Position numbers and translations under genes: made by a program. A stretch of DNA of 64,000 nt from an uncultured virus (IMG/VR IMGVR_UViG_3300045284_000309) (taxonomy: Duplodnaviria; Heunggongvirae; Uroviricota; Caudoviricetes): the IMG/VR virus record IMGVR_UViG_3300045284_000309. One strand, written 5' to 3'. Of the stretch, positions 1 through 60,903 are shown in pieces. Below the pieces are notes generated by a model that saw only the letters and a program-made list of their open reading frames with translations, did no database searches and had not been told where the DNA came from. Position 1 is the first letter of the stretch. Every line of letters begins with the position of its first letter.

Positions 1-2998
1 CCGACCTGTCCTGAGGAGCGAGACAATGGAATTTCACTCCGTTCTCGTCCACCATCTCAAACAGCCACGTCTTCACGCTTGCCCACGGTGACGCCTTCAG
101 TTCCAGTTTGATGCCTTCCGGAATCCAGAACAGCTTCGACACGGAGACGCGACCTACGACCGGCTCCAATCCTTTTTCACGGCCGAGATGCCGCCAGCCC
201 GAGTCTGAGCTTCGTGCCCCTGTGTGCTTCGGCTTGACATCCTTGAAAATCTGTGGCTTCTTCAGCGTGAATCCCAGCGCCTGAAATTGGACTAGATCCG
301 CGTCGTCGGCCCGCTTGACACCGAAGGACTCGAAAGCGCCAAGCTTGCCGAGATTCTCAAGCCGAGTCACATTGAGCGAGCGCCGTGTCGTACGATCTCT
401 GAAATCATCAAGCGACTGGAACGGCTGTCCCTGGAGGATCTCGTTGACGGCCACCGGGCCAAGACCATGAATCTTGCCAAGCCCGACACGAATCCCTCCG
501 GTCTTGTCGATACCGAATCCAGCACCGGATCGGTTGATATCCGGAAGAATGAAATTGTACCCTTCTGCCCTGGCTGCTGCGAGGTACTGCGAGCGCTCCG
601 GGTAGTGATCGAGCAGGGAGGCGAAGAATTCTGCCGGGTAGTGACACTTGAGATAGGCGATCTTGCCCGCTAGGACGCCATAGGAGGCCGCGTGTGCCCG
701 GTTGAAGCTGTAGCCACTGAATTCCCTCACCTGATCCCAGAAGACGCCTGCATGCGCTCCTACGGTCTTCTGGGCGGCTTTCATGAAATCAGGCTCGATA
801 GCCGAGAATGCTTCTTTGGCCCCACGGCCGACACCTTTGGCTTTTTTGATCGCCTGGTAGATGTCATCGACCCCGCCATCATCCATTCCGACCGCGTAGC
901 CAATTTCCATCGCCTGTTCCTGGAAGATCGGTAGCCCTTCTGTCGGCCCCAGGATCTTCTCCAGCATCGGATGCGGGTACGTGACAATTTCACCGCCCTG
1001 TCTCCGCTGGACGTAGAGCTTCGCCTTGTTGCTCCGTGTGTTGGCAGGACGGTAGAGGGCGGCGGCGAGAACAAGATCGTAGACATTTTCAGCTTCCATC
1101 TCTACGATCCCTTTGCGGACTTCCTTGCCCTGAAGCGTGTGAATTCCATCGACCTTCCCGGCTCGGATCATCTCGTACGTCGGCTCATCATCCGTGGTCA
1201 GGTCGAAGAATTCCAGCGGCGACTTCCCGATCATTTTCAAAACATCCGCCGCGATATCGAGCGCAGTGAGTCGAAGGAAATCCCCCTTGACCAGGCCGAA
1301 GTCTTCCAGCGACTTGTAATCGAACTGAGTCACGAGCTTGCCGCTCGACGCGATTAGGTACATGGGCACCCATTGCTTGAGTGGCCGCTCCGGTGTGCCG
1401 AAGGCCCAGGCACAAGCATGCTGTGAAATCGACTTGATGGAATCGAAGATCGAAGACGTGATCTCATATAGCTCCGGGTAGTCTTGGCTGAGAGCTTGAA
1501 ATACGTCCGTATCCTCGTCAACCATTCCCGAGTCGATCATCTGCGGGAGAAGCTTTGAAATCTCGTCCTGCTCCTCCTTGTCGATTCCAAGGGCCGACGC
1601 AGCCATGCGGAAGGCAGAGCGATTGGCGGCTGTTCCGTAATTACAGATCTGCTCGACCTGGCCCTTGCCGACCAGTGGCTCCATGTGCTCCTGCACGATC
1701 CGCATGAAATCCTCGTACCGGCTCGGCTGGATATCGATGTCGATGTCCGGGAGCTTCTTCCTGGCCGGATTGAAAAAGCGCGAGAAGATCAGATCGTGCT
1801 CGATGGGATCTATCTCATGGATTTTCAGGCAGTAGCAGAGGAGGCTCGATGCCGCCGACCCTCGCGTCCAAGTCAGTATCCCCATCTTCCTCGCCGCGAT
1901 GATGAAATCTGAAATCAGCAACAGGTAGTGAGCGAAGTCACCGATGGCCTCGATCTCGTACTCAAAACGCTCGCGAGCTTTTTCACCGTGCTTGTCGATC
2001 ATCTCCTTGAGCCGCGCCTTGCTGCGCATCCTCATCCGCTTCATCGGATCGTCGTAGCCCGAGAACGGAATCGAGTAACTGAAATTGTCCAGCGGGTCGA
2101 GAACGATGTTTACCTCGTTGACGATCTCCTCGATGTTCGTCAGAGCTTCGGCCGGTGCATCGATCTTCTCCATGCTGCGCATGTAATTTCCGAAGTAGAG
2201 ATAGTCCTTGAGATACGACGCCGAGAGAGTCTCGCTTGATCCAGTGAAATCGTCTCTCGATCTCCAGGCGGACGCCTTCATCGCTATATGCGCCTTGCGG
2301 TCTGAAATCGTCTGCATGTGCGAGTCGTTCGTAAGGATCAGCGGCGTGTCTGTCACCTTGGCCAGTCCGATCAACTGGCCACGGACAACTTCCTCGCGCT
2401 CGATCATTTCACAGTACGCAGGAAACGACTCGTCATAGCACTTCGGGATCAGGTGATTCTGGATCTCGACGTAGAAATTTGGGAACACAGATTTCATTGC
2501 CTCGATGTAGCCCACGGCCAGGTTGGGCATGTCCCGTAGAAGGACTTGATTCAACTCTGAGCCGAGACAGCCGGAAAGGACGACGTTATGGTGCATTGGC
2601 CAGGGTGCGATCTCCAGCATCCTAAAAACGGAGATACGCGGCTTCCTGTAGAAATTCTCCCGCTGCATTGCCTCGGTGCTCCAGGCCACGAGATTCTCAT
2701 AGCCCTCACGAGAGAGCGCCAGCACGGTCAGGTGAAATTGCTCAGGCATCAGGTCTTTGCCTTTTTCACCCATCGCCCAATCGGGAGTGACGTAAAGCTC
2801 ACAGCCGAGAATGGGCTTGATCTTTTCAGCCTTCGCCGCCTTGTAGAGCGCAGGAGCGGACATGAGCGTCCCGTGCTCTGTCAACGAGACGGCCGACCAT
2901 TTCAGATCCTTGGCCCGCTGCACGACGGCCTTGGGCGAACCGAACCCGTCCAAAAGTGAAAAAGTGGAATGGCAATGAAGGTCAATGTAATTTGTCAT
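1..2998 (-). CDS. dnaE: DNA polymerase III alpha subunit (3' end outside window)
   Basis: Translated by hand from ATG at 2998: MTNYIDLHCHSTFSLLDG (PHP domain), TRGSAASSLLCY, catalytic PDIDID, ALYRP, IFQEQ, GYSFNRAHAASY, HhH GLGP. No stop in the segments read; absent from the ORF track, as expected for an ORF running off the edge. Confidence 0.97.
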   Translation of the reverse strand, partial: MTNYIDLHCHSTFSLLDGFGSPKAVVQRAKDLKWSAVSLTEHGTLMSAPALYKAAKAEKIKPILGCELYVTPDWAMGEKGKDLMPEQFHLTVLALSREGYENLVAWSTEAMQRENFYRKPRISVFRMLEIAPWPMHHNVVLSGCLGSELNQVLLRDMPNLAVGYIEAMKSVFPNFYVEIQNHLIPKCYDESFPAYCEMIEREEVVRGQLIGLAKVTDTPLILTNDSHMQTISDRKAHIAMKASAWRSRDDFTGSSETLSASYLKDYLYFGNYMRSMEKIDAPAEALTNIEEIVNEVNIVLDPLDNFSYSIPFSGYDDPMKRMRMRSKARLKEMIDKHGEKARERFEYEIEAIGDFAHYLLLISDFIIAARKMGILTWTRGSAASSLLCYCLKIHEIDPIEHDLIFSRFFNPARKKLPDIDIDIQPSRYEDFMRIVQEHMEPLVGKGQVEQICNYGTAANRSAFRMAASALGIDKEEQDEISKLLPQMIDSGMVDEDTDVFQALSQDYPELYEITSSIFDSIKSISQHACAWAFGTPERPLKQWVPMYLIASSGKLVTQFDYKSLEDFGLVKGDFLRLTALDIAADVLKMIGKSPLEFFDLTTDDEPTYEMIRAGKVDGIHTLQGKEVRKGIVEMEAENVYDLVLAAALYRPANTRSNKAKLYVQRRQGGEIVTYPHPMLEKILGPTEGLPIFQEQAMEIGYAVGMDDGGVDDIYQAIKKAKGVGRGAKEAFSAIEPDFMKAAQKTVGAHAGVFWDQVREFSGYSFNRAHAASYGVLAGKIAYLKCHYPAEFFASLLDHYPERSQYLAAARAEGYNFILPDINRSGAGFGIDKTGGIRVGLGKIHGLGPVAVNEILQGQPFQSLDDFRDRTTRRSLNVTRLENLGKLGAFESFGVKRADDADLVQFQALGFTLKKPQIFKDVKPKHTGARSSDSGWRHLGREKGLEPVVGRVSVSKLFWIPEGIKLELKASPWASVKTWLFEMVDENGVKFHCLAPQDRS

Positions 2999-4148: not shown

Positions 4149-4486
4149 GCCGCGATCCTCTTGCGCAGCCGCTGCACCGTGGGCGCTGCTTCCTTGAGCG
4201 CCTTGGTCGCAGTCAATTTCACACGGACGGAGGCAGGCTTCGCAGAAACCTCTACCTCCTCGCCTGTCGCCGGATTGCGACCCATGCGCTTCTTCGTGGC
4301 CTTTTTCAGAGCAGGCTCGATGATCAAGCCCGCGAGCTTCGTGCGCTTACAGTCGCCCAGGTTGGAAACTACGACATCGTTGAGCGCAATCAACATGACG
4401 CGGATTTCAGACTTGGTGTAGCCCGTCTCCCAGGCGAGCTTATCGACAAGCTCCGTCTGGGTCACCATCGGTAGCGCCATTTTCAT
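4145..4486 (-). CDS. hup: HU/IHF-family DNA-binding protein
   Basis: TQTELVDKLA...RMGRNPATGEEVEVSAKP...KALKEA HU signature. Confidence 0.93.
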   Translation of the reverse strand: MKMALPMVTQTELVDKLAWETGYTKSEIRVMLIALNDVVVSNLGDCKRTKLAGLIIEPALKKATKKRMGRNPATGEEVEVSAKPASVRVKLTATKALKEAAPTVQRLRKRIAA

Positions 4487-29763: not shown

Positions 29764-30470
29764 GGGCTAATTACAGCCTCGGCCTCGTAGTCGATGCTCG
29801 TTCTGGTCAGATCGACTCCATGAAGTTGCGCTGGCCTACATCCGGAGTCGATATTCGCCATCAGTAGAATTACACTGTAATTCAGGTTGAGATCGCCGTT
29901 CGCGGATGCTATCAGAGCTTCGATGGCTTTGGTGGGATCGGCCGTCGTCGCGCCTGTCTGGAGTGAAACAAGGCCAGCCGTGAATTTCGATACTGTTCCT
30001 CCAGCCGCCAGGTACGTAGCTACGAGCGAGCGAGCCAGAGTGAGGTTCGTCATCCCTCGAAGCTGGACGTAGGTGGCTTCTTCCACAAGGACGGAATTCG
30101 GATCTTGTGTGTGCATGACATCCGAGACAACAGCCTGTGCTTCCTGAGTGACAATTACCTCATTCAGCGCAGGGTTCCTGAGCAGGCAGCGGTCAACGAT
30201 CTCCTGCACGAGTGTTTTTGTCCCGCCCTGGATCGAGCCGGAATACGGGCTGAAAATCCCGTCCTCGCCTTCCCAGCGGATACGGAACCAGTCGGTTTCG
30301 TCCTGGGCCTCGGGCGTCGTGTAGCTCGAAATGTAATTCGGGTATACGCCAATCGCAATCGCACGTTCGATCTCGGTGAACACCCCATCTTGCGCGGGCG
30401 ACTCCTCGATCCTGAGCGCGACCATTCCCGCTTGGGTTGGCGGGACGAAATCAAGCCGAACAGTTGCCAT
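29760..30470 (-). CDS. Head-tail adaptor-like protein
   Basis: Synteny; VSKFTAGLVSL motif. Confidence 0.5.
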   Translation of the reverse strand: MATVRLDFVPPTQAGMVALRIEESPAQDGVFTEIERAIAIGVYPNYISSYTTPEAQDETDWFRIRWEGEDGIFSPYSGSIQGGTKTLVQEIVDRCLLRNPALNEVIVTQEAQAVVSDVMHTQDPNSVLVEEATYVQLRGMTNLTLARSLVATYLAAGGTVSKFTAGLVSLQTGATTADPTKAIEALIASANGDLNLNYSVILLMANIDSGCRPAQLHGVDLTRTSIDYEAEAVISP

Positions 30471-46050: not shown

Positions 46051-47754
46051 TTACGCTCCTGAGATGATCGATTTGTTCATCGCAGATGAAAGTGCGGAAG
46101 GGATCTGAAGCTGCGGGCTTTGAATTGCGGCGACCGAGGCGAACATCCCTGCGTGATGCCAGTGGTCTGCATTTCTGTTCTTCCTCCAGCGGGCTACAAC
46201 GTTCCCTCTGAGGTTCTCCTCCTCCACCCTCACCATCTGCGTCAGTTGATGGTAGAGGCCGTTGTACGGCTTCCCAGGCATCTCCTCGCCAAGCTCTCTC
46301 GCGTCCATCGGAAAGACGGTCACACCGTCGATCATGTCGCGGATGAAACCGTCGAGCGCCATCGTCTTGTCGATGGTCACGTAGCCAGGCTCTCCATATT
46401 TCAGGATGCTGAAATTTGCGGCTTCGTGGGCTTGAGGACGGTCGTCTGAGAATCCGATCCAGAGTCGTCCGTGGTATTTCTGAGCAAGATCGTAACTCTT
46501 GCTTTTTTCAGGGTGCGCATCGATCACTCCTACCCACGATGAGAGAGACATGAGGAATTTGTCGAGATCATCCCACTTGCGGAACGTTTTCAGGTTCCAC
46601 AGCATTTTCCTTTTGTTCTGGCCGAAGTGCCAGCACCAGACGTGAATGACAGTGCCAACGTCGATCCCGACCGAGACGGAGGAATTCGGAAGCCCGCCGA
46701 TCTTGTAGCCCGGTGCCCTGATCTTGTCGAGAAGCTCCGGTGTAATTCTGTCGCCCGAGGCCGTGTAGGGCAGGCCCATGTTTTGATTCCAGAAGCTCCG
46801 GAACATCCGCTCGTCTCTCTGACCCTTGAAATATCCTTGCATGATCTCACGCAAGGGCTGGGTCGGAGAGTTGAACTGTGAAATGTGATAGCCACGGATC
46901 TTCCCGTCGAGGCGCATCGGAGTCCAGCGGCCGTTCGCGTTCAAGCCCGCTCTCTCGTTGTCGGAGATTTCACGATGGCAGAACGCGCACTCAAGGACGC
47001 ATTCGTCGGCGGTGTCACCGAGCTTCAGGTTTGAGTAGTCGAGCGAGGACTCCGTGAAATTCAGAACCTGAAATCTGCCGCATCCGGGACAAGGGACTTC
47101 CCAACGGTGCTGATCGGAGTATTCCCAGGCGTCATCGCCATAGACCCCGTAGCCATCGACGGTCGGAGTCGAGAGAATCACGATCCTTTTGAACGTCGAG
47201 CCATCCATGCGGTGGCGGGCATCGGGGAGATTTTCCTCAACCATGTGATCGCGCTCATCCCAGACCTCGAAATCGACAGGGACTTCCTGAAGCTCGCGGA
47301 GGATGTTCGTCCCTCGGATGTAGAAATTCACTCCGTCGATGGTCTGCTTATGGAGGCGGTTGTCCACTGAGGCGAATTTCATGGAAAGCTGGGGGTTGCT
47401 CTCGATGATGGGGTCGATTCTGGCTTGAACAAACGGGACTGCTCCTGTTTTCAGGGGCAGGAGGTAGAGTCCGTTCAACCGGCGCTCTGCGACGTTGTGC
47501 AAGCTCTTGGTCAGAAAGGTGACCGTGAAGGCCATCTGAGCGGCCTTCGGAATTACAATCTCCGGGCTGTAATCCCGGATCACCTGGCGGACGTACTCTC
47601 GACCTGTAAGGCTGAATGGCTTCCCATCCACCTTCAATTCCATACCGACGGCCCACTCGTCCGGCCTGGCCATCGAGCGGAGAGATGAAAATGAGGGAGG
47701 GGTTGACGCCTGGGGTTCGCTGGAACGCTTCCTACGTGAGGAAACCGGCGACAT
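46051..47754 (-). CDS. Terminase large subunit (lambda GpA-type)
   Basis: PKAAQMAFT, WDERD, LSTPT, VPCPGCG..CAFC, GYHISQF, GIDVG, ADHWHHA. Confidence 0.93.
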   Translation of the reverse strand: MSPVSSRRKRSSEPQASTPPSFSSLRSMARPDEWAVGMELKVDGKPFSLTGREYVRQVIRDYSPEIVIPKAAQMAFTVTFLTKSLHNVAERRLNGLYLLPLKTGAVPFVQARIDPIIESNPQLSMKFASVDNRLHKQTIDGVNFYIRGTNILRELQEVPVDFEVWDERDHMVEENLPDARHRMDGSTFKRIVILSTPTVDGYGVYGDDAWEYSDQHRWEVPCPGCGRFQVLNFTESSLDYSNLKLGDTADECVLECAFCHREISDNERAGLNANGRWTPMRLDGKIRGYHISQFNSPTQPLREIMQGYFKGQRDERMFRSFWNQNMGLPYTASGDRITPELLDKIRAPGYKIGGLPNSSVSVGIDVGTVIHVWCWHFGQNKRKMLWNLKTFRKWDDLDKFLMSLSSWVGVIDAHPEKSKSYDLAQKYHGRLWIGFSDDRPQAHEAANFSILKYGEPGYVTIDKTMALDGFIRDMIDGVTVFPMDARELGEEMPGKPYNGLYHQLTQMVRVEEENLRGNVVARWRKNRNADHWHHAGMFASVAAIQSPQLQIPSALSSAMNKSIISGA

Positions 47755-50089: not shown

Positions 50090-51463
50090 CCTGAAATCCT
50101 GCCCTAGCGTTTCATTGAATCCCCCTACGGCCGGAACGATCCAGTTCCCCCGAATCCATCCGGATCCGGGTTTCCTAGATCCATCCGACAAAAAAGGTGG
50201 TTACATGAAAACGTACGGCAGAAACACTCACCAGGGGTTCATCGCCGAACAATGCGAAAGTGGCAAGTCTCAATCGGAGGCTTTCGCCACACTTGAACCG
50301 CTGGTTCTGGCTCAGATTGAGCCGATGATTTTCACGCGAAACCCTGATCGTTCTATGGGGGAATCGCATCGCATGCCGAAGCCGATGGCGCAGCAATTGC
50401 TAGACCTTCGCAACGCTATCGGCCGGATCTATTCCGCGATTGAGCGGGATAGGGCCGGAACGGGTTCTACCCGCCAGACTCGGACGATTGTTGAAACCGT
50501 GGAAACGGCCGAAACTGAAATCGTCGAATCACGGCCGGTAGCGTCAGGAAAGCGCCGGATCGAGACTGAACTGGAAAAGATGGAACGTCGTCTAGATGAA
50601 ATCTCCAGGTTCTGTCAGTCTCGCAACGAAACGGATCCGATCGATGAAATTGGAATGCGGCCGTATGAAGCGGCAGGCAGACTGATTCCCCGTGGTGTTC
50701 CGGCCGATGCGATCCTATCGGCTATCTCGATTCACTGGTCTAGAGATGCCCGGCAAGATGCGGGTATCGCAGACTTCGATTTCACTGCGTTGTCCAGGCG
50801 GTTCATGGATGAGCAAAACTGCGAATCCTACTGGCGCAATGAACGTGGCCAGACTGAACCGCTACACGAGATGTTCGGCTACGTGCTAACGCTTGCGCAA
50901 GCTCGCCAGCCGATCTATCTCTACGGAATCAAAGGTACGGGGAAATCCCATCTTGCGAGACAGCTTGCAACGTACCTAGACCTGCCGTACGGGGAAACCC
51001 CGCTATCGGCTGGCGCAAGCCGTGGCGACCTGCTAGGCAGGCTTACGGCAAGCTCTGAACGGCCGTTCATCCCGGCGAAATTCACGCAATGCTACTCAGG
51101 TGGCGGCGTGTTCAATTTCGAGGAAATGGACGCGGCTCTAGCCGAAATGATTATCGTCCTGAATAACGCATTGGCCGGTGATTATTTCGAGAATTCCATG
51201 TCCGGGGAAGCGCTCAATAAGAGCGAGAATTTCATCCCCGTGGCAACGGCCAATACCCTCGCAATGGGGGCGAATTCAAAGTACATCCGCGAGCGTTTGG
51301 ACGCGGCAACTTTGGACAGATGGAACCCCGGCCGTGTCGAAGTGAAATTCGACAAAAAACTCGCGAAGCACATGCTTTACAAGCATAGTGGCGGAGTGAA
51401 AAACAGCTAGATCATTGCGGCTGTAGGGGGATTCAATAAAACGCTAGTAAGCGGGATTTCAGG
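50090..51463 (+). repeat. Long imperfect inverted repeat (50090-50146 / 51405-51463) enclosing the AAA+ gene
   Basis: CCTGAAATCCTGCCCTAGCGTTTCATTGAATCCCCCTACGGCCG versus the reverse complement of CGGCTGTAGGGGGATTCAATAAAACGCTAGTAAGCGGGATTTCAGG. Confidence 0.9.
50205..51410 (+). CDS. MoxR/CbbQ/CobS-like AAA+ ATPase
   Basis: GIKGTGKS, FNFEEMD, LNNAL, ATANT, LDAATLDR; AAGGTGG RBS before ATG 50205. Confidence 0.9.
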   Translation: MKTYGRNTHQGFIAEQCESGKSQSEAFATLEPLVLAQIEPMIFTRNPDRSMGESHRMPKPMAQQLLDLRNAIGRIYSAIERDRAGTGSTRQTRTIVETVETAETEIVESRPVASGKRRIETELEKMERRLDEISRFCQSRNETDPIDEIGMRPYEAAGRLIPRGVPADAILSAISIHWSRDARQDAGIADFDFTALSRRFMDEQNCESYWRNERGQTEPLHEMFGYVLTLAQARQPIYLYGIKGTGKSHLARQLATYLDLPYGETPLSAGASRGDLLGRLTASSERPFIPAKFTQCYSGGGVFNFEEMDAALAEMIIVLNNALAGDYFENSMSGEALNKSENFIPVATANTLAMGANSKYIRERLDAATLDRWNPGRVEVKFDKKLAKHMLYKHSGGVKNS

Positions 51464-52423
51464 CTGAATTACACTGGATTGGGAACCCCTTCCGACTAGA
51501 AGGGATTTTCCAATGACTAAGAGCAATGAGAGCTACTTTCAGATCGATTGGTTCGATTACAAAAAGATCTTGAAATCGACCGTCCTAGACGGTAAGGCTC
51601 CGACACTGAATAACGCAAACACGACGCGGAGTTTCGCAACTCATGTTGCGGATTCCGGTAGCTGGCGCGGCTATTCAGATGGGCAATTGAAGCGGTGGAT
51701 TTCAGAGGGTTACACTCCCCCTGAAATGGTCGGTGGTTTGAGTAACCTCATCCCCCCGATGCGTGAAAAGAGTCGCACGATTTGGAACGAAGATGGCGAT
51801 GAATTTCATGTTGACCGCGCGATGAGTGGAACGGACAATTTCATGTCCTCTCAGTCTCGCCGGGAGGTTATCCCCGGTCTAAAGATTGAGGCCGGAATCA
51901 TGTTTAGTTCGGCCACGAATCACACTGTCGTCAACAATTACACTATCTGGCTTTGCAAGGTATTGTTCTCACTCGAACAAAGTGGAATTGATACTCAGCT
52001 TACGCTCGATTTCCCGTCATGGGAAAGTGTAAATGACTCGTCGCGGAAACGTGCCGGAACGTCAGGCGCGACCCTATATCACTCAGTAGTCAGAGTGAAA
52101 AAAGAGGGTGAGATTTCCGATTTCAAGTCATGGTCGGCGATGGTATCCCCGGCAGCGCTGCGCAACTTCGGTTTCGGGGCTATCTGCCTACATGCGAATG
52201 AAATAAATGGAACCCCTAGCGGTTCGATGGGTAGGGGGGTTCCGGAACGTCACGAATGGAAACTTGTATGGAATGAGGAGAGGCGAGTTTTGATCGTTGA
52301 AAACGCCTACACTTCTTCATCGTTTCCGGAATCCAAAATGACGGCCGACTTGAAAGCCGTCATGCAAAAGGTTAGCGGCAAGACTCAGTAATTTCATCGG
52401 GGTTTCCATCCAGTGTAATTCGG
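51464..52423 (+). repeat. Inverted repeat (51464-51489 / 52399-52423) enclosing the partner gene
   Basis: CTGAATTACACTGGATTGGGAACCCC / GGGGTTTCCATCCAGTGTAATTCGG: 25 pairs including 2 G-U, plus 1 bulge. Confidence 0.9.
51513..52391 (+). CDS. AAA+ partner protein (vWA/CobT-like, divergent)
   Basis: Follows the MoxR-like ATPase; GDEFHVDRAMSG, LEQSGI, VKK, P...R..GF pattern. Confidence 0.6.
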   Translation: MTKSNESYFQIDWFDYKKILKSTVLDGKAPTLNNANTTRSFATHVADSGSWRGYSDGQLKRWISEGYTPPEMVGGLSNLIPPMREKSRTIWNEDGDEFHVDRAMSGTDNFMSSQSRREVIPGLKIEAGIMFSSATNHTVVNNYTIWLCKVLFSLEQSGIDTQLTLDFPSWESVNDSSRKRAGTSGATLYHSVVRVKKEGEISDFKSWSAMVSPAALRNFGFGAICLHANEINGTPSGSMGRGVPERHEWKLVWNEERRVLIVENAYTSSSFPESKMTADLKAVMQKVSGKTQ

Positions 52424-52524: not shown

Positions 52525-53078
52525 GTGCTTTCATGTTGTCAGAACGGGCAATTACCAATTACAGGATCCTGTTGCCAAGCCTGGCGATTATCGATTTCAA
52601 GGATCGAATGGGAAACCGATTTCAGGGTGGAATCCGTTTTCAATCCAAAGTGAAATGTTCGCATGTCGGTGCTCGTGAAATTTCACAATCGATTCGTCGC
52701 GGGTTGTCTGGCAATGAAATCCTGGTTATTCTGGGCCGGTGGGCGGGAGTTGGTGGGCCTCGTGGGGAAGCCGTGAAATCGCTTCTACCGTGCTCAGGCT
52801 CGTGGCCAGGTGGGAACCCTCACCAGACGGCCGGAAGCCGTTAGACGGGCTTAGAGAGGCTTGCAGCCATGCGGGTTTGCGAAGCACTTGCCCCTGTGAG
52901 GCTCTGTAAGCCGTTCTAAGAGGCTGGGTTGGCCGGATGACCTGGGAGTCGCATAAGGTGGTCAGAGGCGCTTAGAGAGGCTTACAGGGGCTTGAAAAAG
53001 GTGGGCGGCATGAGCGCTGGCGTCCGGCGTGAAACTCGGCGTGGAAAGGTGCCGCACTCGTTTTGATAGTTGGGCGCG

Positions 53079-53112
53079 AAAAATAAAAACCCCCGGCGTG
53101 AGCCAGGGGTTT
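53079..53112 (-). terminator. Intrinsic terminator of the leftward early region
   Basis: AAACCCCTGGC..GCCGGGGGTTT followed by TTATTTTT. Confidence 0.8.
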
Positions 53113-53138
53113 CGATGAAGCCGGGATGCAGAACGGGC

Positions 53139-53660
53139 TTAGATCAGCCGCGCTCCGGACGGCCTTCTGAAAAAGCCGAAGTGCGGATTATCGGGAGAGG
53201 GCTTGAGCGTGGCGGTGAAAACGATGTTACGGCCGTGAAGCTCGGAGGGCATCTTGATTTCGGCCGACTCGTGAATGTTCGCCGGGACGGTTCCCCAAAC
53301 CTTGTTACCGTCGATCAGGCGCACCGTCATTTTCAGCGAGTCGCCGTAATCGCTGCTGTGCCACTTGGTCGAAAGGATCTCGCCGCTGAATTCCCGCTTG
53401 CCTGCCACGAGATCCGGCGCACCCTGTGAAATCTCCTCGTCGGCCTTCTTCGTCTCCGCATGATGCTTCGCGGTGCGCATCCACTTTTCAGTTGCGGCCT
53501 TCTGCCCTTTAGTGAGCGAGCCGAACGTCTTGACCGCCGCCTGCATGTCGCGCAGAAAATCGTGGCAGTCGTCACCTTGTGAAAACAGCCAGGAGACAAG
53601 CTCGATATTTTCGAGCCGCCACTCATTCGTATCCTGCATCCTCTGTTCGTGCCGTGTCAT
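53139..53660 (-). CDS. Hypothetical protein with C-terminal OB-like region
   Basis: F..DM......GSLT.GQ motif; KVWGTVP..FGFFRRP; own promoter and RBS. Confidence 0.75.
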   Translation of the reverse strand: MTRHEQRMQDTNEWRLENIELVSWLFSQGDDCHDFLRDMQAAVKTFGSLTKGQKAATEKWMRTAKHHAETKKADEEISQGAPDLVAGKREFSGEILSTKWHSSDYGDSLKMTVRLIDGNKVWGTVPANIHESAEIKMPSELHGRNIVFTATLKPSPDNPHFGFFRRPSGARLI

Positions 53661-53697
53661 GAGTCAAATTTCCTTTCGCGTGTCGGAAGCTGCGACC

Positions 53698-53726
53698 ACC
53701 ATACAGGCAATTTCCTTTCCTGTCAA
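53698..53726 (-). promoter_or_regulatory. sigma70-type promoter
   Basis: TTGACA-17-TATGGT. Confidence 0.8.
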
Positions 53727-53754
53727 GAGCAATCTTGAAGGTTTCCTAAGAACG

Positions 53755-53779
53755 AAAAGAGCCGCCTTGCGGCGGCTCT
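53755..53779 (-). terminator. Intrinsic terminator
   Basis: AGAGCCGCC-GCAA-GGCGGCTCT followed by TTT. Confidence 0.75.
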
Positions 53780-53807
53780 CGTGGAGCGGTGGAGCGTGGG
53801 AGGGATT

Positions 53808-54044
53808 TCAGAAGCCGCCCTCCATGAGATGACCGCCGTAGGTTCCGATCTTTTCATCGCGAGCCGCGAAGTGATCGGACGTTCCCATGACGGCCTTGTA
53901 AAACTTGCCACGGTCGAAGCGGGGATTGTCCTGGGCGAACGTGTCAGCGAGTGAAAGCGTGAGGCACCACACGACGCCGGTTTTGTCCTGGGCGAACGCG
54001 GGAGCGAGAGTAGCGGCGATCTTGGCGTAATCCTTCATGGTCAT
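53808..54044 (-). CDS. Hypothetical protein
   Basis: MTMKDYAKIA..LADTFAQDNPRFDRGKF; AAGGAG RBS. Confidence 0.75.
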   Translation of the reverse strand: MTMKDYAKIAATLAPAFAQDKTGVVWCLTLSLADTFAQDNPRFDRGKFYKAVMGTSDHFAARDEKIGTYGGHLMEGGF

Positions 54045-54079
54045 TGCAATTTCTCCTTGTTGTCGGAAGCGATGGAACC

Positions 54080-54109
54080 ACCATAGCACGAATTTCCTTC
54101 CGGTGTCAA
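54080..54109 (-). promoter_or_regulatory. sigma70-type promoter
   Basis: TTGACA-18-TATGGT with TG extension. Confidence 0.8.
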
Positions 54110-54427
54110 GGGCGATTGCAAATTACCGTTCCGGCGTCTGAGAGAGCCGCATCGGGATTGCTGCAAAGCTTCGGAGCGCTGCAAAGCCATTCGCGCCAGG
54201 TGCCGACGAAGTGCGAGCCGTACGGATGAATTTCAGACCAGCAATGCCAGCCGAGCTTCATCGCCTGGATGACGTGAAAAAGAGTCATAGCAGGCCCGCT
54301 ACATACAAGCTCAGGACTGCAATGATGAGCGAGAGCAATCCGAGTGCGAGCGATTGCGTTGTCTTGTTTCCCGGCCTCACGCAAACAAGGAAAAGAGCGG
54401 TGAGACAGGAAAGAACGATGGCGATTT

Positions 54428-54622
54428 TCATGACCGGCCCTTCATGTCAGAGAGTGAAATTACAGCCTCGCGCATTGCCTCATGCTCCGCTGCCGCGCTT
54501 GACGGCTCCAAGAGCATCACCGGCTTTTTGCGCTGCCGGTAGCGCCAGTCGATTTCAGCCACGACGCCGACCATGACGACGGCTGCGACAACAACCAGGA
54601 GAGCGGCGAGGGAGGCGGTCAT
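54428..54622 (-). CDS. Small membrane protein
   Basis: MTASLAALLVVVAAVVMVGVV hydrophobic N-terminus; ATGA-coupled. Confidence 0.6.
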   Translation of the reverse strand: MTASLAALLVVVAAVVMVGVVAEIDWRYRQRKKPVMLLEPSSAAAEHEAMREAVISLSDMKGRS

Positions 54623-54792
54623 GCCCGCCCCCCTGAAAACGCCTTTGGCGCTATCGCCGTGCTCGTGTCGATAACGAGCCAATCGCCCTTGATGTTGTAA
54701 TTCGCAAAATCAAGCGCGGCATTCTCGCTTGAAAACGGGCCGACTAGCTCCGGAAGATCATACCCTCCGGTGAGTAGGATGAACCAGGTCAT
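54619..54792 (-). CDS. 57-aa hypothetical protein (not in ORF track)
   Basis: MTWFILLTGG..LVGPFSSENAA; ATGA overlaps at both ends. Confidence 0.6.
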   Translation of the reverse strand: MTWFILLTGGYDLPELVGPFSSENAALDFANYNIKGDWLVIDTSTAIAPKAFSGGRA

Positions 54793-55199
54793 GCCCGCCC
54801 CCCGTGCTTCTTTGAAATTGTCGGCATCGACCGGCGAACCTGCTCGCTTGAAAACGAGTAGGTATGCATGAAATCGCGCTCGCGCCGTGTGAGCTTGGCA
54901 GTCGTCTTCCTGATCGCGGCTCGCGCAACGCGGGCGAGATCGGCCAGGTATTCCATGCGGATCTGAAAAGCCAGAGACGGCTTCGGAAGCTCGCCGTTTC
55001 CCTTGACCGGCTCGCGGTCGATGTGTGAAAACGTCTCGCGGTTCTCGATCACGCCGAGAAGGTCGAAGCGCACCGGCTGCTTAGCGGCCAGCTTGCGGGC
55101 CTTCTGAGCCGCCAGGTGAAGCTCGCAGGCGTAGACGAAACCGCCGCCGTACGTGAAGGTGCATCCGCACCGCTTGCCTTTGACCATTAGCTCTACCAC
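54789..55199 (-). CDS. Hypothetical protein
   Basis: CGC..CELH; GAAGGA RBS. Confidence 0.7.
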   Translation of the reverse strand: MVELMVKGKRCGCTFTYGGGFVYACELHLAAQKARKLAAKQPVRFDLLGVIENRETFSHIDREPVKGNGELPKPSLAFQIRMEYLADLARVARAAIRKTTAKLTRRERDFMHTYSFSSEQVRRSMPTISKKHGGRA

Positions 55200-55234
55200 T
55201 TGAATTTCCTTCCTGTCGGAGTGCTATCTCCAAC

Positions 55235-55264
55235 AGCGTATCAGACCCTGGGCCTATTGCGCAA
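55235..55264 (-). promoter_or_regulatory. Promoter with CCCAGGG spacer box
   Basis: TTGCGC-18-TACGCT; shares CCCAGGGTCTGATAC with 57786-57814. Confidence 0.6.
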
Positions 55265-55284
55265 GGGCAGTTAGGAAATTCGTA

Positions 55285-55710
55285 TCAGGGGAAGGGAAAC
55301 GGCTCTCTCGCCCCGCTGTGGCAACCGGAAGCTTGAGAGCCGTACCCTCCCCCCTTTTCCCCCCAGCCCCTCCGGAACGGGTCGGTGAACCCGGAGGACG
55401 GAGGGAACCTAGCAGCTTTTCAGGGCAGATACAACTTCCCCTGGTTGGGCGGTGTTTGACTTCTGTCCTCTGAGTCCGGGGTTTGGAGAGAAAGCGCCCT
55501 GTTCGCATATGGAATTTCAGCCCCCAGCCGGTCATCGTGGCGTAAACCGCTCGATCTGCCACCGGCCACCGTCTTTTACGATTTTGCCCATACCTACGGT
55601 GCCTGCTTGAAATTCCTTATCTGTCGGCCCGACTCTCTCGGAGGTTGTCGGGCATCAATTGAAATTCATGGTGAGCCTCGCGTGTTGCGGGTTTATTCTT
55701 GTCGGAAGTG
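55285..55710 (-). ncRNA. Candidate ~430-nt structured non-coding RNA
   Basis: Own promoter at 55716-55744; several stems; no convincing ORF. Confidence 0.45.
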
Positions 55711-55715
55711 ATGCG

Positions 55716-55744
55716 ACCCTACAGGATCGCTCAGAGCGTGTCAA
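55716..55744 (-). promoter_or_regulatory. sigma70-type promoter
   Basis: TTGACA-17-TAGGGT. Confidence 0.7.
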
Positions 55745-55747
55745 GGC

Positions 55748-55825
55748 AAAAAGAAAGGGCCGGGGGAGTCTCACCTTGAACCCCGGCCCTTCCGCCTAGC
55801 TCCTTCCGACAAGAAAGGATTTCGT
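55748..55825 (-). ncRNA. Candidate trans-acting antisense sRNA
   Basis: Promoter at 55831-55859; seed AUCCUUUCUUGUCGGAAGG; 11-bp terminator stem (55755-65 / 55781-91) plus U-tract. Confidence 0.7.
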
Positions 55826-55830
55826 TGACC

Positions 55831-55859
55831 ACGGTAGCAGCTTACGGGGATTGTGTCAA
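55831..55859 (-). promoter_or_regulatory. sigma70-type promoter for the sRNA
   Basis: TTGACA-17-TACCGT with TGn extension, overlapping the 3' end of ORF 55842-56117. Confidence 0.75.
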
Positions 55860-56117
55860 CCCCTGCTGCTCGATCACATGCAGAGCGGCCGTGAAACCGT
55901 CCAGCCACAGGGATGCAAGCGTAGCGGCGGCTCCGACTGTCGGCCGGATTTCAGGGGATGCCATCAGGATCATTCTGGCCCGCTGAGTCGCGCAGTATTG
56001 AGCCGATTCCATATCCACACCCATCGCCTCGATCCCCTTGAAAAGATCCTGGGAGGCGTCGGCCAGGGCATCATTCATGCGGACGGCCGCAAAGATTTCC
56101 TCGCCGGTGATTTTCAT
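55842..56117 (-). CDS. Hypothetical protein
   Basis: ATGA-coupled 91-aa ORF. Confidence 0.7.
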   Translation of the reverse strand: MKITGEEIFAAVRMNDALADASQDLFKGIEAMGVDMESAQYCATQRARMILMASPEIRPTVGAAATLASLWLDGFTAALHVIEQQGLTQSP

Positions 56118-56467
56118 GACTTGCGCTCCATGTTGAAGCTCTCGGCCAGGCCAGAAGTCAGCGCCTGAATTTCAACGAGCATACGCTCGTCATCCGTGAG
56201 CGTACGCCAGCCTACCGGCTCCGGTGAAAACATCGTTCGGTCAATGGCCACGACATCGCCAATTGAAATCGAGCGGCCTTCATAGCCCTTGGGCGGCGTC
56301 ATGACTTCATCGACCCGCTGAAAACGACGCCAAACGTCGTCAACGGTGAAGCTCCGATCCGGGAAAGCGTCTTGGCTGTCCTCGACCCAGACAAGCTTGT
56401 AATTCGCGCTGTCCTTGAACCCCATGCAGGTCTGAACAAACGGGGCTTGATAGATTGCGATTTTCAT
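56114..56467 (-). CDS. YodL-like domain protein
   Basis: IYQ..YKLVW..F...P.GYEGRSISIGDVV..VGW. Confidence 0.8.
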   Translation of the reverse strand: MKIAIYQAPFVQTCMGFKDSANYKLVWVEDSQDAFPDRSFTVDDVWRRFQRVDEVMTPPKGYEGRSISIGDVVAIDRTMFSPEPVGWRTLTDDERMLVEIQALTSGLAESFNMERKS

Positions 56468-56599
56468 TTAGGCTTCCTTTGCGCACGGCTCGCAAACGCA
56501 AGCCGTGGTGAGTAGGGGAGTCTTGAAAAAGAACCAGTTGCGCAGGGTGAAGGTGCCGCACCCATCGCATCGCGCTCTTTTGTTACAGAGTTTCCACAT
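56468..56599 (-). CDS. 43-aa Zn-finger-like protein
   Basis: MWKLCNKRARCDGCG...CVCEPC; GAAAGGG RBS. Confidence 0.65.
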   Translation of the reverse strand: MWKLCNKRARCDGCGTFTLRNWFFFKTPLLTTACVCEPCAKEA

Positions 56600-56600
56600 T

Positions 56601-57008
56601 TCAACCCTTTCGCTGTCGGAGGTTCTTGCACTTGCGGCATTGCCTTGTGCCGGTGTCCGGACGAATGTAGACGTTTTCATCCGAAAGCAAATGGCCATTG
56701 ACGCAATGCGTTTGTCGAGCCTTCATTGCCACGAAATTTTCACCACGTAGAAGGTTCTCCTGGTGCGTCACAGGCTCGCAGTGAAAAGGATTGGCGCAAG
56801 CTCGCTGTCTGCACAGATGGTCAAGCTCCAAGTCTTCCAGGATCGGCCCGATAACAATTTCATACATGACTCGGTGAGTCAGACACGTTCGCCCTTCGAC
56901 GCTTATCGTGCCGTAGCCCCTGTCAGACTTCGCGCCGCGCCATAGCCAGCAGTCCCATTCGCCACTGGCTACTGAAATTCCCTCCACTATACGAGCTTCC
57001 AGATTCAT
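56601..57008 (-). CDS. HNH endonuclease
   Basis: CWLWRG..GYG..HRVMY..LDHLC..CANPFHCEPVT.QEN; THCVNGH..RQCRKC. Confidence 0.92.
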   Translation of the reverse strand: MNLEARIVEGISVASGEWDCWLWRGAKSDRGYGTISVEGRTCLTHRVMYEIVIGPILEDLELDHLCRQRACANPFHCEPVTHQENLLRGENFVAMKARQTHCVNGHLLSDENVYIRPDTGTRQCRKCKNLRQRKG

Positions 57009-57048
57009 CAATGGCACCTTGCCCGCTTCTCGCAGAGCTTCCACATTT

Positions 57049-57426
57049 TCAGTAGTCGCTCGGTCGGAGGATTGTGGTCGTTTCGCGCAGCCAGACCTTA
57101 TCCGTCCAGGCCGCATCTGAAATTACCCAAAGCTCGATACCCTTGACCGTGAACGAGCTTACGATCCTTGCGCCGGATTTCACGGAAAGATCGTTCTGCC
57201 TTGCGTCGTGGGCATCGACCTCGCCCCAATCGCCGTTGACGTGGCGAAGGAGAAGACCCTGCATCGCTGTCTGAAATTCTTGCGTGTCCGGGATTGCATC
57301 GACAATCTCGTTGTAGGCTCCGCTCGCCATCGTGACGCCAGACTTGAGGATCGAAAACCGCGAGCCTGAGACGACGCTGGAATTGCGGCGGATTGCCCTG
57401 GGATCGTTCGGCCCTAGAACAGTCAT
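57049..57426 (-). CDS. Conserved mobile-element-type hypothetical protein
   Basis: LLRHVNGDWGEV..D..N..G.RI.S.F..LWVI..TTILRPSDY. Confidence 0.75.
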   Translation of the reverse strand: MTVLGPNDPRAIRRNSSVVSGSRFSILKSGVTMASGAYNEIVDAIPDTQEFQTAMQGLLLRHVNGDWGEVDAHDARQNDLSVKSGARIVSSFTVKGIELWVISDAAWTDKVWLRETTTILRPSDY

Positions 57427-57749
57427 GATGCGAACACCTTGCGGCACTCGCCCGCGATCTGAAATTCGTTGCAGCGCTCTTGCGAGCCAGCGGCACCGCA
57501 GACGTTGCAGACGACTTGACCGACCTCGGTCTGAAATGCTTCAAGCTCTCCGCGCTTCGTCGGAAACGCACCGTAGACGATGCCGGACGTGGAAACGAAA
57601 TACTCGTCCGCTTCGTCTTCGGTGTTGTAGGCCCACCATCCGGAATCGTACTGATAGCACGACGGATCGACGGGCACCCATGCGTCCAAGGCTAGCTCGA
57701 CGGTAGCACCGTCCTTGAGCGCCGCCTTGACCGTTGCGCCTGTATCCAT
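57423..57749 (-). CDS. Hypothetical protein
   Basis: GAGAGG RBS before ATG 57749; C-terminal Cys motif. Confidence 0.7.
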   Translation of the reverse strand: MDTGATVKAALKDGATVELALDAWVPVDPSCYQYDSGWWAYNTEDEADEYFVSTSGIVYGAFPTKRGELEAFQTEVGQVVCNVCGAAGSQERCNEFQIAGECRKVFAS

Positions 57750-57785
57750 GAGGATTTCCTCTCTGTCGGAAGTGTTCATGCCGAC

Positions 57786-57814
57786 AAGGTATCAGACCCT
57801 GGGATGATTGTCAA
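57786..57814 (-). promoter_or_regulatory. sigma70-type promoter with CCCAGGG box
   Basis: TTGACA-17-TACCTT. Confidence 0.8.
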
Positions 57815-57831
57815 GAGGAAATTGTAAATGT

Positions 57832-58215
57832 TCACTCGCTCATGTCCCACTTGGCGAATTCGTCTTCCAGCTTCTGAAATTCACTCTGGGCTTCGGCAAT
57901 CGTGCCGTAGATCCAGATATCACGAAAACCGCGATCATCGGTCGTGACAATCCAGCGATCAACGCGGTAGAAGTGTCCGGTACTCGGGCAATCGACGTTC
58001 CCGGAGATTTCATCGGTAAAGCCGTGCCCGTAGAAGGCTTCCAGAGCGTCCATGATCGTTTTCACGGCCGGATCCAGCTTCTGGGCCTCGGCTACGATCT
58101 GGGCCTTCGTGGTGGCAGGAGTGCGGCTCTTGAAATCAGCCGCACTCTCTGCCTCGCTCGCCCACTGATGAGCGTCCTTTGAAAACTGTGCCCAAGGATC
58201 AGGCATCGTCGTCAC
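57832..58215 (-). CDS. Hypothetical protein
   Basis: 127-aa ORF overlapping the upstream gene. Confidence 0.7.
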   Translation of the reverse strand: MTTMPDPWAQFSKDAHQWASEAESAADFKSRTPATTKAQIVAEAQKLDPAVKTIMDALEAFYGHGFTDEISGNVDCPSTGHFYRVDRWIVTTDDRGFRDIWIYGTIAEAQSEFQKLEDEFAKWDMSE

Positions 58216-58483
58216 TCATCGCTGCGGCCATTTCCTTCCGCGCCCATTGCGCGAAGACGATGGCCACCGGAGCACCCTGCATCGGCCCTGGCGCGATCCG
58301 CGTCACCTGTGCGCAGTGAAAAGCGATCAACTGCGCGATCAGGGATTCGCGATCCTCAAGCGGAAATTCGGGGTTCTCGGCAATCATGCGGTCGATGTGC
58401 TCCGTCGCAGGCCCGTCGTTCAAGACTAGCTGGCGGACTTCCGTCCAAATCTGATCGAGCATCTTATCTCTGTCGTCGCTCAT
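58199..58483 (-). CDS. Hypothetical protein
   Basis: GAAGGAG RBS. Confidence 0.7.
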   Translation of the reverse strand: MSDDRDKMLDQIWTEVRQLVLNDGPATEHIDRMIAENPEFPLEDRESLIAQLIAFHCAQVTRIAPGPMQGAPVAIVFAQWARKEMAAAMSDDDA

Positions 58484-58510
58484 GTCAATTCTCCTTCGTG
58501 TCGGAAGTTT

Positions 58511-58915
58511 TCAGAGTGAGTCGCAGGAACCGTAGATGATTGCATCGTAGTAGTAGGATGATGTGGAAAGGACGCGAAACTTGTCCGCATGGATGAAACC
58601 CATGTCCAGGACGCGGAGCTTGGTGCCCTTAGGAAGATTGAAAATCTGCCCGGTGTCATAAAGCTGCGCAAACCCCTCGCGGTCGTTCGCCGCTGCCGCA
58701 CTCGTGGCTGCATCGAAATCGTCACGGGTGACCGCAAATGTCACGTCCGGCTTTCCAACCCGCGTGACGTTGCCAGTTACACAACTGTCGCTGCTGGATC
58801 CGCTGGCGTTTGAATCGCCGCCGCCCGAAACGTGAGAGAAAACGATGATCATGAGAACGATGAAGCCGATGATGACAAGCGTTCCCTTGGTTGTATCGGA
58901 GTCCTTCTGAGTCAT
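58511..58915 (-). CDS. Membrane-anchored hypothetical protein
   Basis: N-terminal TM LVIIGFIVLMIIVF; LPKGTKLRVL SH3-like motif. Confidence 0.7.
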   Translation of the reverse strand: MTQKDSDTTKGTLVIIGFIVLMIIVFSHVSGGGDSNASGSSSDSCVTGNVTRVGKPDVTFAVTRDDFDAATSAAAANDREGFAQLYDTGQIFNLPKGTKLRVLDMGFIHADKFRVLSTSSYYYDAIIYGSCDSL

Positions 58916-58958
58916 TTGAATTACCTTCCTGTCGGATTGAATTTCCTTCGATGCAGCC

Positions 58959-58989
58959 AAGGTAGCATAATCGTCCTAGGGTCTGTCAA
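58959..58989 (-). promoter_or_regulatory. sigma70-type promoter
   Basis: TTGACA-19-TACCTT with TGn; 20 bp at and upstream of the -35 identical to 57809-57828. Confidence 0.65.
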
Positions 58990-59006
58990 GAGGAAATTGT
59001 AAAGGT

Positions 59007-60775: not shown

Positions 60776-60868
60776 GCTACCCGCCCCGCTCTCAGGAATC
60801 GAACCTGAGCCTCCACCGTATGTTTCTGGCGGCGCTCTACCTAGCTGAGCTAGAGCGGAGCGGGTAGC
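60776..60868 (-). ncRNA. tRNA-like RNA with aberrant 10-nt anticodon loop and acceptor stem extended to 16 bp
   Basis: TCCGCTC-TA-GCTC AGCTAGGTA GAGC-G-CCGCC AGAAACATAC GGTGG-AGGC-TCAGG TTCGATT CCTGA-GAGCGGG; no CCA. Confidence 0.8.
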
Positions 60869-60874
60869 CAGACC

Positions 60875-60903
60875 ACTCTATCATCCCTGGGTCGATTCGT
60901 CAA
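60875..60903 (-). promoter_or_regulatory. Promoter for the tRNA-like RNA with CCCAGGGATGA box
   Basis: TTGACG-17-TAGAGT. Confidence 0.75.

Follow-up and report, generated by a model that had tools for sequence, protein, structure and literature searches.

A candidate small RNA unit of uncultured soil phages that is antisense to a shared ribosome-binding-site box

Introduction

Within the accounts cited here, the closest described system to the locus analyzed below is the start-associated sequence (SAS) of the Cluster K mycobacteriophages. This motif is short and asymmetric, takes in the Shine-Dalgarno (SD) sequence and stands in one orientation, a few nucleotides ahead of the start codons of 11–19 non-structural genes (PMC3203893). 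The K1 phages have in addition a single SAS copy on the other strand that is unlinked to a gene start, and the authors leave open whether the reader of the motif is an RNA or a protein, of the phage or of the host (PMC3203893). What SAS does has remained unsettled from 2011 (PMC3203893) to 2025, when its function was still described as unverified (PMC12699233), the motif being covered by later surveys as well (PMC12699233; PMC11373665), and the passages on SAS in the original paper do not mention antisense RNA. The box described here resembles SAS in kind and not in sequence, as it too overlies the SD a few nucleotides before the starts of non-structural genes and in one orientation, but the phages and the host are unrelated and the 13-bp SAS consensus GGGATAGGAGCCC has no match in our sequence with up to two mismatches, compared to 16 in the right arm of phage Anaya. 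The reversed SAS copy of Anaya was considered as an equivalent of the unit described below and was rejected, since it lies in a promoter-like context (TTGACC-17-TATCCC) and itself resembles a piece of a promoter, with no hairpin and T-run seen behind it.

Translation can be blocked by a small phage RNA that base-pairs across the ribosome-binding site, as with P22 sar and P1/P7 c4, and in the case of c4 the complementary stretches are thought to lie in loops (PMC12197685). More generally, the phage RNAs treated in the parts of that review drawn on here either have a single message at their own locus as target (sar, c4, OOP, and aQ) or regulate host genes (PMC12197685). By these accounts sar and c4 have one target message (ant) at the same locus, whereas in the present case there are eight dispersed candidate targets that share a motif and the predicted RNA is encoded away from them. 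Moreover, sar is a cis-antisense RNA and the present unit is not, as there is no conserved gene on the strand opposite to it.

The control of many early messages by one phage product is known from the RegA protein of phage T4, an RNA-binding translational repressor that occupies the initiation regions of its targets. A similar dampening of many early messages is proposed here, with an RNA as the effector and base pairing as the means of recognition. In enterobacteria, MicL and DapZ are 3′-UTR-type small RNAs whose promoter lies inside the upstream ORF, which share the terminator of the operon and which have the seed near the 5′ end; they are encoded by the host, require Hfq and act on host targets. 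The unit analyzed here is like them in that its promoter is located in the end of the preceding coding region, its terminator is also that of the operon and its candidate seed is close to the 5′ end, and differs from them in that theirs is an Hfq-dependent regulation of host targets.

Our subject is a locus in what we refer to as the window, the whole stretch of 64,000 nt of DNA from an uncultured virus that was analyzed. A first-pass annotation, made from the letters alone, had proposed that one phage small RNA encoded at this locus shuts down a dispersed set of early genes whose leaders share a seed site. The minus-strand interval 55859–55748 has counterparts throughout a family of soil phages, and from our analysis we judge the chances to be about even that it encodes a small non-coding RNA, or else forms the 3′ end, with a promoter, of the leftward early operon.

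Results and Discussion

A Minus-Strand Unit Bounded by a Candidate Promoter and a Terminator

The DNA of the window belongs to a phage genome and encodes a large terminase (46051–47754; PHROG 675, E = 1.5e-78) with <25% identity to that of any deposited phage, and the sequencing runs that contain its sequence are soil metagenomes. Long minus-strand ORFs for structural proteins lie to the left of the terminase gene, and from ~64000 down to 52700 there is a block of small minus-strand genes without assigned function, which is faced by a short plus-strand cluster encoding an AAA_5 ATPase and its DUF7192-like partner (Table 1). A blastn search of 53000–59000 against phage records gave no match, and the nearest phage record (G001) is 22.6 kb in length and ends short of the unit. 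The whole window likewise gave no Rfam 15 match at gathering thresholds, the best score at the unit being 18.1 bits compared to thresholds of 41–88.

The TTGACA-17-TACCGT promoter and the 11-bp hairpin with U-tract that the first-pass annotation had claimed for the minus strand can be read directly in the sequence. The 17-nt promoter spacer contains the TAA stop codon (55844–55842) of the preceding ORF, and the GC hairpin of the terminator has perfect 11-nt arms (55791–55781 and 55765–55755) with 15 nt between them, followed by CTTTCTTTTT to 55748. The absence of a coding region was also as claimed, since the only minus-strand ORFs over the unit are of 33 and 45 codons with GTG starts, and they cross the terminator or begin inside the −10 hexamer. 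The 78-nt stretch has a minimum free energy (MFE) of −35.7 kcal/mol compared to −27.7 ± 3.7 kcal/mol for shuffled sequences (z = −2.15), with 7 of 200 shuffles as stable. A generic consensus scan missed both the promoter and the terminator of the unit because the −10 hexamer has only three of the six consensus letters and the loop of the hairpin exceeds the limit of 8 used in the scan. Judged by its sequence, it nevertheless belongs with the other promoters of this phage, of the form TTGAC[AG]-16..18-TAnnnT. The window has 10 such sites, whereas 200 shuffles averaged 1.86 (maximum 6), and the minus strand between 53.7 and 62.7 kb accounts for 8 of the 10.

Table 1. Coordinates of the unit, of the box-bearing leaders and of related units.
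Feature	Position	Strand	Remarks
−35 hexamer TTGACA	55859–55854	−	Inside the 3′ end of ORF 55842–56117
−10 hexamer TACCGT	55836–55831	−	GGT follows, as at several other early promoters of this phage
Predicted ~78-nt RNA	55825–55748	−	Start inferred from the −10 hexamer, end from the U-tract
Anti-box, 24 nt	55822–55799	−	Reverse complement of the full leader box including its SD part
5′ hairpin SL1	55819–55801	−	7-bp stem, 55819–55813 with 55807–55801; loop UUGUC, 55812–55808
Intrinsic terminator	55793–55748	−	13-pair hairpin 55793–55753, 15-nt loop region, U-tract
Leader, AAA_5 ATPase gene (50205–51410)	50182–50204	+	Box at 50184, degenerate
Leader, AAA+ partner gene (DUF7192-like, 51513–52391)	51486–51512	+	Box at 51491; best predicted target
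Leader, gene 53139–53660	53689–53661	−	Box at 53687; 9 nt behind TTGACA-17-TATGGT promoter
Leader, gene 53808–54044	54069–54045	−	Box at 54067; behind TTGACA-18-TATGGT promoter
Leader, gene 54789–55199	55222–55200	−	Box at 55220
Leader, gene 57423–57749	57772–57750	−	Box at 57770; behind TTGACA-17-TACCTT promoter
Leader, gene 58199–58483	58507–58484	−	Box at 58505; no promoter; a few nt past the upstream stop codon
Leader, gene 58511–58915	58938–58916	−	Box at 58936
Orphan box	55708–55696	−	13/13 complementary to the anti-box; no SD or ORF behind
Strain-variable segment	55399–55743		345 nt just past the terminator; 24 nt instead in contigs of three soil runs
Unit in G002	17609–17703		Follows a homologue of the window's 91-aa gene
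Unit in G003	58131–58069		
Units in G009/L042, G007/L044, G008/L045			
Units in metagenome contigs L064, L068, L087			
Unit in L092			Weaker

A Box over the Shine-Dalgarno of Eight Early Genes

The leader box consists of TCCGAC, 4–8 nt and GGA, followed by the start codon, and it overlies the SD. The pattern TCCGAC-N3-8-GGA has 15 matches in the window compared to 5.8 ± 2.6 expected, and none of 100 shuffles reaches 15, while the 13-mer CTTCCGACAAGAA has 6 matches with up to two mismatches compared to 2.06 expected, a result that is weak alone (3 of 100 shuffles reach 6). Eight of the boxes lie 13–21 nt upstream of the start codons of ORFs of 78–401 codons, six of them on the minus strand and two on the plus strand (Table 1). 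The box is thus real, but the number of box genes given in the first-pass annotation, about ten, becomes eight genes plus one leader that lacks an ORF. This last, orphan box lies at the 5′ end of a predicted transcript from a second promoter, TTGACA-17-TAGGGT (55744–55716). The distance from the −10 hexamer to the box varies from 8 to 22 nt and that from the box to the GGA is 4–8 nt, and three boxes in the window have no promoter at all (58505, 51491, and 50184), which indicates that the box goes with the start of translation and not with the start of transcription. The reversed box of the unit (55805–55819 on the plus strand) is, as had been noted, the sole reversed copy in the window.

Complementarity of the Anti-Box to the Leaders

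The best leader match to the anti-box had been assigned to the AAA+ partner gene, and this is borne out, as 21 nt of its leader (51488–51508) pair with the anti-box with one U:U mismatch and one G-U, and the same leader is the strongest predicted target (−31.5 kcal/mol). The orphan box pairs with the anti-box at −17.9 kcal/mol, and the proposed targets are situated 0.1–5 kb from the unit on the same or on the other strand. Scoring of 42,648 windows against the anti-box of 24 nt placed all nine box sites between 2nd and 26th rank among non-overlapping sites. In terms of structure-corrected energy the eight leaders of the window average −9.5 kcal/mol compared to −4.0 kcal/mol for 41 other gene starts (Mann-Whitney p = 9e-5), two of which score −10 or lower, although this enrichment is partly circular because the anti-box mirrors the motif by which the leaders are defined. 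The prediction that box-bearing leaders would be the top targets is supported by the ranking and by the comparison with other gene starts, but not by the number of strong sites, as there is no excess of sites at or below −20 kcal/mol with the real seed (74, compared to 22–105 for six shuffled seeds). Contiguous runs allowing G-U were also not discriminating (395 for the real seed vs. 346 for the reversed seed), and when the seed was lengthened to 34 nt so as to take in the GC-rich linker, the background in duplex folding averaged −15.8 and the top matches were random.

In the four relatives whose own RNA was compared with their own leaders, the preference is evident in G002 (p = 1e-4), G003 (p = 4e-4), and G008 (p = 1.5e-4), with a value of p = 0.068 in G007. 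Covariation of seed and target, which the first-pass annotation had named as a check in relatives, is seen at a single position, the last base of the seed, where GUCGGG in the units of G002 and L068 goes with CCCGAC leaders (3 of 8 and 3 of 5, respectively) and GUCGGA in the other units goes with TCCGAC leaders. It does not extend to the units as wholes, since the cross-phage matrix is not diagonal and the leaders pair best with the anti-box from the same phage in only three of eight cases. Moreover, the AAA+ tree leaves the independence of G002 and L068 unsettled, and a single covarying position would be equally expected from a shared protein reader or from the concerted evolution of copies.

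One Unit per Genome in Related Soil Phages

Relatives were collected by searches anchored on the terminase and on the AAA+ protein (26, 7, and 46 loci), and four complete ones, G002, G003, G007, and G008, were analyzed whole. The leader box is present in relatives as well and is therefore older than this phage. The unit has a shared build, in which a pyrimidine run and UGUCGG are followed by a linker of 6–13 nt and a GC hairpin with U-tract, and it is located on the strand opposite the AAA+ cluster, 1–5 kb beyond it. Loss of the antisense copy from relatives that keep the box, named in the first-pass annotation as a finding that would speak against its proposal, is not what is seen in eight related soil-phage contigs, each of which retains one unit, but it does apply to the more distant L075, which has two box-like leaders by pattern and no anti-box at its two operon-end terminators. 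TGTCGG is invariant across the units and a GC hairpin with U-tract is present at the 3′ end of all nine. The nine sequences contain 114 YTGTCGGR sites, of which 11 have a terminator within 30 nt, whereas the baseline at random positions is 55 of 2160 (binomial p = 1.7e-4), and nine of these 11 are the units, exactly one per sequence. The unit is found in all eight sequences with at least five box leaders and in none of the 10 with no leader, and among 10 short contigs with one to three leaders, to which L075 also belongs, L087 has the unit and L069 has a TGTCGG and terminator match. The divergence that is spanned is considerable, with branches of ~0.3–2 changes per site in the AAA+ tree and a flanking gene product of the window that is 32% identical to that of G002 and has no detected homologue in G003. 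The conservation and synteny of the unit across divergent phages, as read from these sequences, is a new observation.

A promoter directly upstream is clear, by eye, in four of the nine units, those of the window, G002 (TTGACG-18-TACATT), G009 (TTGCAA-18-TAGTTT), and G008 (ATGACG-18-TATGAT). In G003, G007, L064, and L068 such a promoter is weak or absent, and in L087 it is located ~50 nt further up, again by eye. About half of the units thus lack a recognizable promoter, and for this reason an origin in a 3′ UTR or an action in cis is possible. The leftward operon ends with the unit in G003, G007, G008, and G009, and release from the 3′ end is therefore as likely in these phages as a separate start.

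In wider scans of viral contigs, the 21-mer of the box gave no match, a gapped 18-base pattern gave four of which only that in G002 is real, and a 15-mer common to G003 and G009 gave 41 with a terminator of the right kind only in those two. Scans with the proteins of neighboring genes recovered G002 only (173-aa protein) and one weak locus (91-aa protein). There are also seven other places where TGTCGG is accompanied by a terminator, which are located at 44249 in the window, 57125 in G003, 50962 in G007, 17866 and 63457 in G008, 13754 in G009, and 5610 in L069.

Predicted Folds of the RNA and of the Leaders

The 5′ part of the RNA had been described as antisense to the leaders, and while the complementarity is real, this stretch is predicted to be folded into a small hairpin, SL1, and not to be a free linear seed. 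In the window SL1 has a predicted energy of −7.5 kcal/mol (z = −1.59; 17 of 200 shuffles as stable), and it is predicted in all six units that were folded separately (−5.0 to −11.3 kcal/mol), although it is not significant in any single one (z = −1.06 to −1.73; 17–30 of 200 shuffles as stable). The stems of SL1 vary in sequence and still pair, with UUUCU/AGAAA in G007 vs. UUCCU/AGGAA in others, and L068 can form GUCUC/GAGAC as read by eye from the sequence and not from a computed fold. RNAalifold on a MAFFT alignment gave only a spurious consensus of five pairs with zero compensatory pairs, as such alignments do not bring the stems into register and are therefore unsuitable for the purpose. 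Among 57 pattern-called leaders from nine phage sequences, 43 have an MFE structure that pairs the SD with a UUCC further upstream and keeps GAC free in the enclosed loop. The mean energy is −4.9 kcal/mol compared to −3.2 kcal/mol for shuffled sequences, a weak difference. With the anti-box folded in SL1 and the GAC of the leaders unpaired in hairpins, recognition from loop to loop is favored over a linear seed.

A Proposed Mechanism and Its Alternatives

We propose, tentatively and with somewhat less than an even chance of being right, that the UGUCGG loop kisses the CCGACA loops of SD-sequestering leaders, and that one master antisense RNA of ~60–80 nt sets the translation of the whole regulon. 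From its 5′ end the predicted RNA would consist of SL1, a short unpaired linker and the intrinsic terminator. The loop and the 5′ arm of SL1 (the pyrimidine run and UGUCGG) are the complement of the CCGAC(A)-purines-GGA leader box over the SD of the eight early genes. In the hairpin of most leaders UUCC would pair with the SD and leave GAC exposed, so that the first contact would be between the loop of the RNA and that of the leader, as in the kissing of classical antisense RNAs, and the helix would then extend across the SD. As the RNA accumulates, the translation and probably also the stability of all box-bearing messages would fall together. A discrete RNA, its action in trans and repression as the outcome are all what we infer from the sequence.

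A different reading, which we regard as unlikely, is that the anti-box is a cis element in a 3′ UTR that acts only within read-through transcripts by pairing with a box or box-like sequence just downstream, thereby masking the next ribosome-binding site or forming a long stem for RNase III, such that only transcripts from downstream promoters would be translated. The best Watson-Crick partner of the anti-box in the window, the orphan box, is indeed only 94 nt downstream on the same strand, the next leader box in G009 is ~45 nt past the terminator, and second copies of the anti-box in G003 (~15592), G002 (~62361), and G007 (~63948) are situated at the base of a long hairpin that is closed by a box-like sequence (z = −4.2 to −7.6). 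The four units that end leftward operons and the half that lack a clear promoter of their own are as this reading would have it. However, a downstream partner is not conserved, none being seen by eye past the terminator in the first units of G002 and G003 or in G007 and G008, and the partner in the window lies in a segment that is missing from three strain contigs that retain the unit. Furthermore, the partners are separated by a strong terminator, so most transcripts would never hold both, and the promoters of four units place the start of the RNA 0–25 nt before the anti-box.

Pairing of RNAs would be dispensed with altogether if the box were the site of a DNA-binding regulator of the phage or the host just past early promoters and the reversed copy one more operator, active in either orientation, which we consider quite improbable. 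Five of the eight minus-strand early TTGAC[AG]-N16-18-TAnnnT sites do have a box or anti-box within 25 nt downstream, the change of GUCGGG with CCCGAC fits an altered protein specificity equally well, and the Cluster K paper, in leaving the reader of SAS as protein or RNA, favors DNA-binding proteins for the extended SAS (PMC3203893). On the other hand, the spacing of the box is tied to the SD and the start codon and not to the −10 hexamer, boxes are found in intercistronic gaps that have no promoter (the three in the window and four in the AAA+ cluster of G003), and the SD itself is part of the box. In all nine sequences, moreover, the reversed copy stands 6–13 nt before a terminator and its hairpin is kept despite changed stems, neither of which an operator needs, and it is retained in units without a nearby promoter. 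That the reversed box has no function at all, as a relic of an inverted leader duplication or as the leader of a small plus-strand gene beside an ordinary terminator, strikes us as very improbable. The plus strand does carry the box followed at the usual distance by a TTG start and an ORF of 53 codons (55825–55986), and its GC3 of 0.67 might suggest a gene, although this is not independent evidence because the ORF and the minus-strand gene share their third codon positions. But no plus-strand promoter was seen for this ORF in the window, and a single syntenic unit per genome over a deep divergence is unlike a relic. The gene-leader version was rejected, as a start codon and ORF behind the complement of the box are found only in the window, in one of nine units, which means that the reversed box is not a gene leader.

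The small-RNA interpretation is plausible as judged by the sequence, and it would be new in kind. A search of the literature, in which papers were judged mostly by titles and abstracts, turned up no paper on a phage RNA that recognizes a motif common to a set of leaders. If the interpretation is correct, early genes would be under a new layer of control, exerted in trans by an RNA that recognizes a common tag on many leaders of its own phage. Such an RNA would be a counterpart of T4 RegA, and it would offer a possible explanation for the start-associated motifs of other phages by providing a concrete and testable reader for them. Since the parts are short, the promoters are sigma-70-like and the SDs are ordinary, the proposal can be tested with reporters even though the phage is uncultured.

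Variation of the Unit among Strains

Contigs of one soil RNA run (X12) include four in 54500–57500 and none over 55748–55830, which has no bearing either way, and contigs in any case cannot reveal the ends of transcripts. Strain contigs from three other soil runs retain the unit, and what they lack is the segment just past the terminator that contains the second promoter and the orphan box (Table 1). Among the differences listed there is no change in 55793–55844, but with 67 more in the 3-kb stretch an unchanged seed in these strains is not thereby proven. The changes that are listed inside the unit consist of a deletion of 4–5 nt and two changes in the loop region of the terminator, together with three changes in its stem, one of which (at 55781) opens the loop-closing pair while the other two keep the pair, from C-G to U-G at 55786 and from G-U to A-U at 55792.

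Further anti-box copies in relatives

A second element with an anti-box, the reverse complement of the box (TCCGAC, 4–8 nt, GGA) that lies over the Shine-Dalgarno (SD) sequence of early-gene leaders, is present in the complete related phages G003, G002, and G007, and in each case it is different from that phage's copy of the unit, the predicted small RNA. All three form a long hairpin with the anti-box at the base and a box-like sequence closing it, and a box-bearing leader is located directly 3′ of each hairpin. The related metagenome contig L064 contains a tandem anti-box pair (at about 5463 and 5431 on the minus strand, with a spacing of 32 nt) with one terminator after both. The unrelated Mycobacterium phage Anaya has a sole reversed copy of the start-associated sequence, the SD-overlying motif of the Cluster K mycobacteriophages, and this is found within the 385 nt that separate gp96 from gp97, where its TATCCC is situated 17 nt past TTGACC and resembles a −10 hexamer.

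Coordinates of the additional elements, neighboring features, and strain differences
Feature	Location	Strand	Remarks
Second anti-box element, G003 (L028)	about 15505-15625	-	z -4.2
Second anti-box element, G002 (L035)	2335-2425	+	z -4.4
Second anti-box element, G007 (L051)	3850-3980	-	z -7.6
Reversed start-associated sequence, Anaya (L102)	29871-29883		
Loop of unit's terminator	window 55766-55780		15 nt; partner at 55665-55679
Indel 1	window 55399-55743		345-nt segment after unit
Indel 2	window 54617-54786		170-nt skip
Indel 3	window 56562-57011		450-nt skip
GCGCCGA-rich repeat region	G003 57900-58060; L075 (more distant related contig, no unit at the expected place) 4330-4420		also G007 (L044), G008 (L045), and L092 (contig with weaker unit)
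Motif CCCAGGGTCTGATAC	window 57795-57809 and 55245-55259	-	also in G002, G003, and G008
tRNA-like gene	window 60783-60859	-	ARAGORN

Strain variation and sequences around the unit

The loop of the unit's terminator is complementary at 13 of 15 positions to a part of the downstream ORF-less leader that contains an SD-like GAGG and an AUG, a match that by a rough estimate would occur by chance in about one in eight such regions, and a deletion makes the loop 4–5 nt shorter in those strain contigs (from other soil runs) that lack this leader. Compared with the window, the soil strains differ by three indels. The first breaks into ORF 55254-55562, which is probably not a gene since it is interrupted in this way and is without relatives, while ORF 56601-57116, an HNH endonuclease, looks like a mobile HNH gene because the third removes most of it in two runs. 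A box-like TCCGAC is followed by a reading frame starting MWKLC at both 56599 and 57045 (minus strand), inside and just past the HNH ORF, which suggests that HNH-type genes are repeated in this part of the window; G002 has six HNH-like matches.

In several relatives, the interval just past the unit, between the converging operons, contains GCGCCGA-rich repeats, accompanied in G003 by a repeated TGTAAGCCTCTCTG motif; this interval may function as an origin or in packaging. The phages also share a second motif, CCCAGGGTCTGATAC, which occupies the spacer and the extended −10 element in some of their early promoters. The tRNA-like gene, to which ARAGORN assigned a four-letter anticodon (aaca) and no amino acid, has a promoter (TTGACG-17-TAGAGT, at 60903) just upstream.
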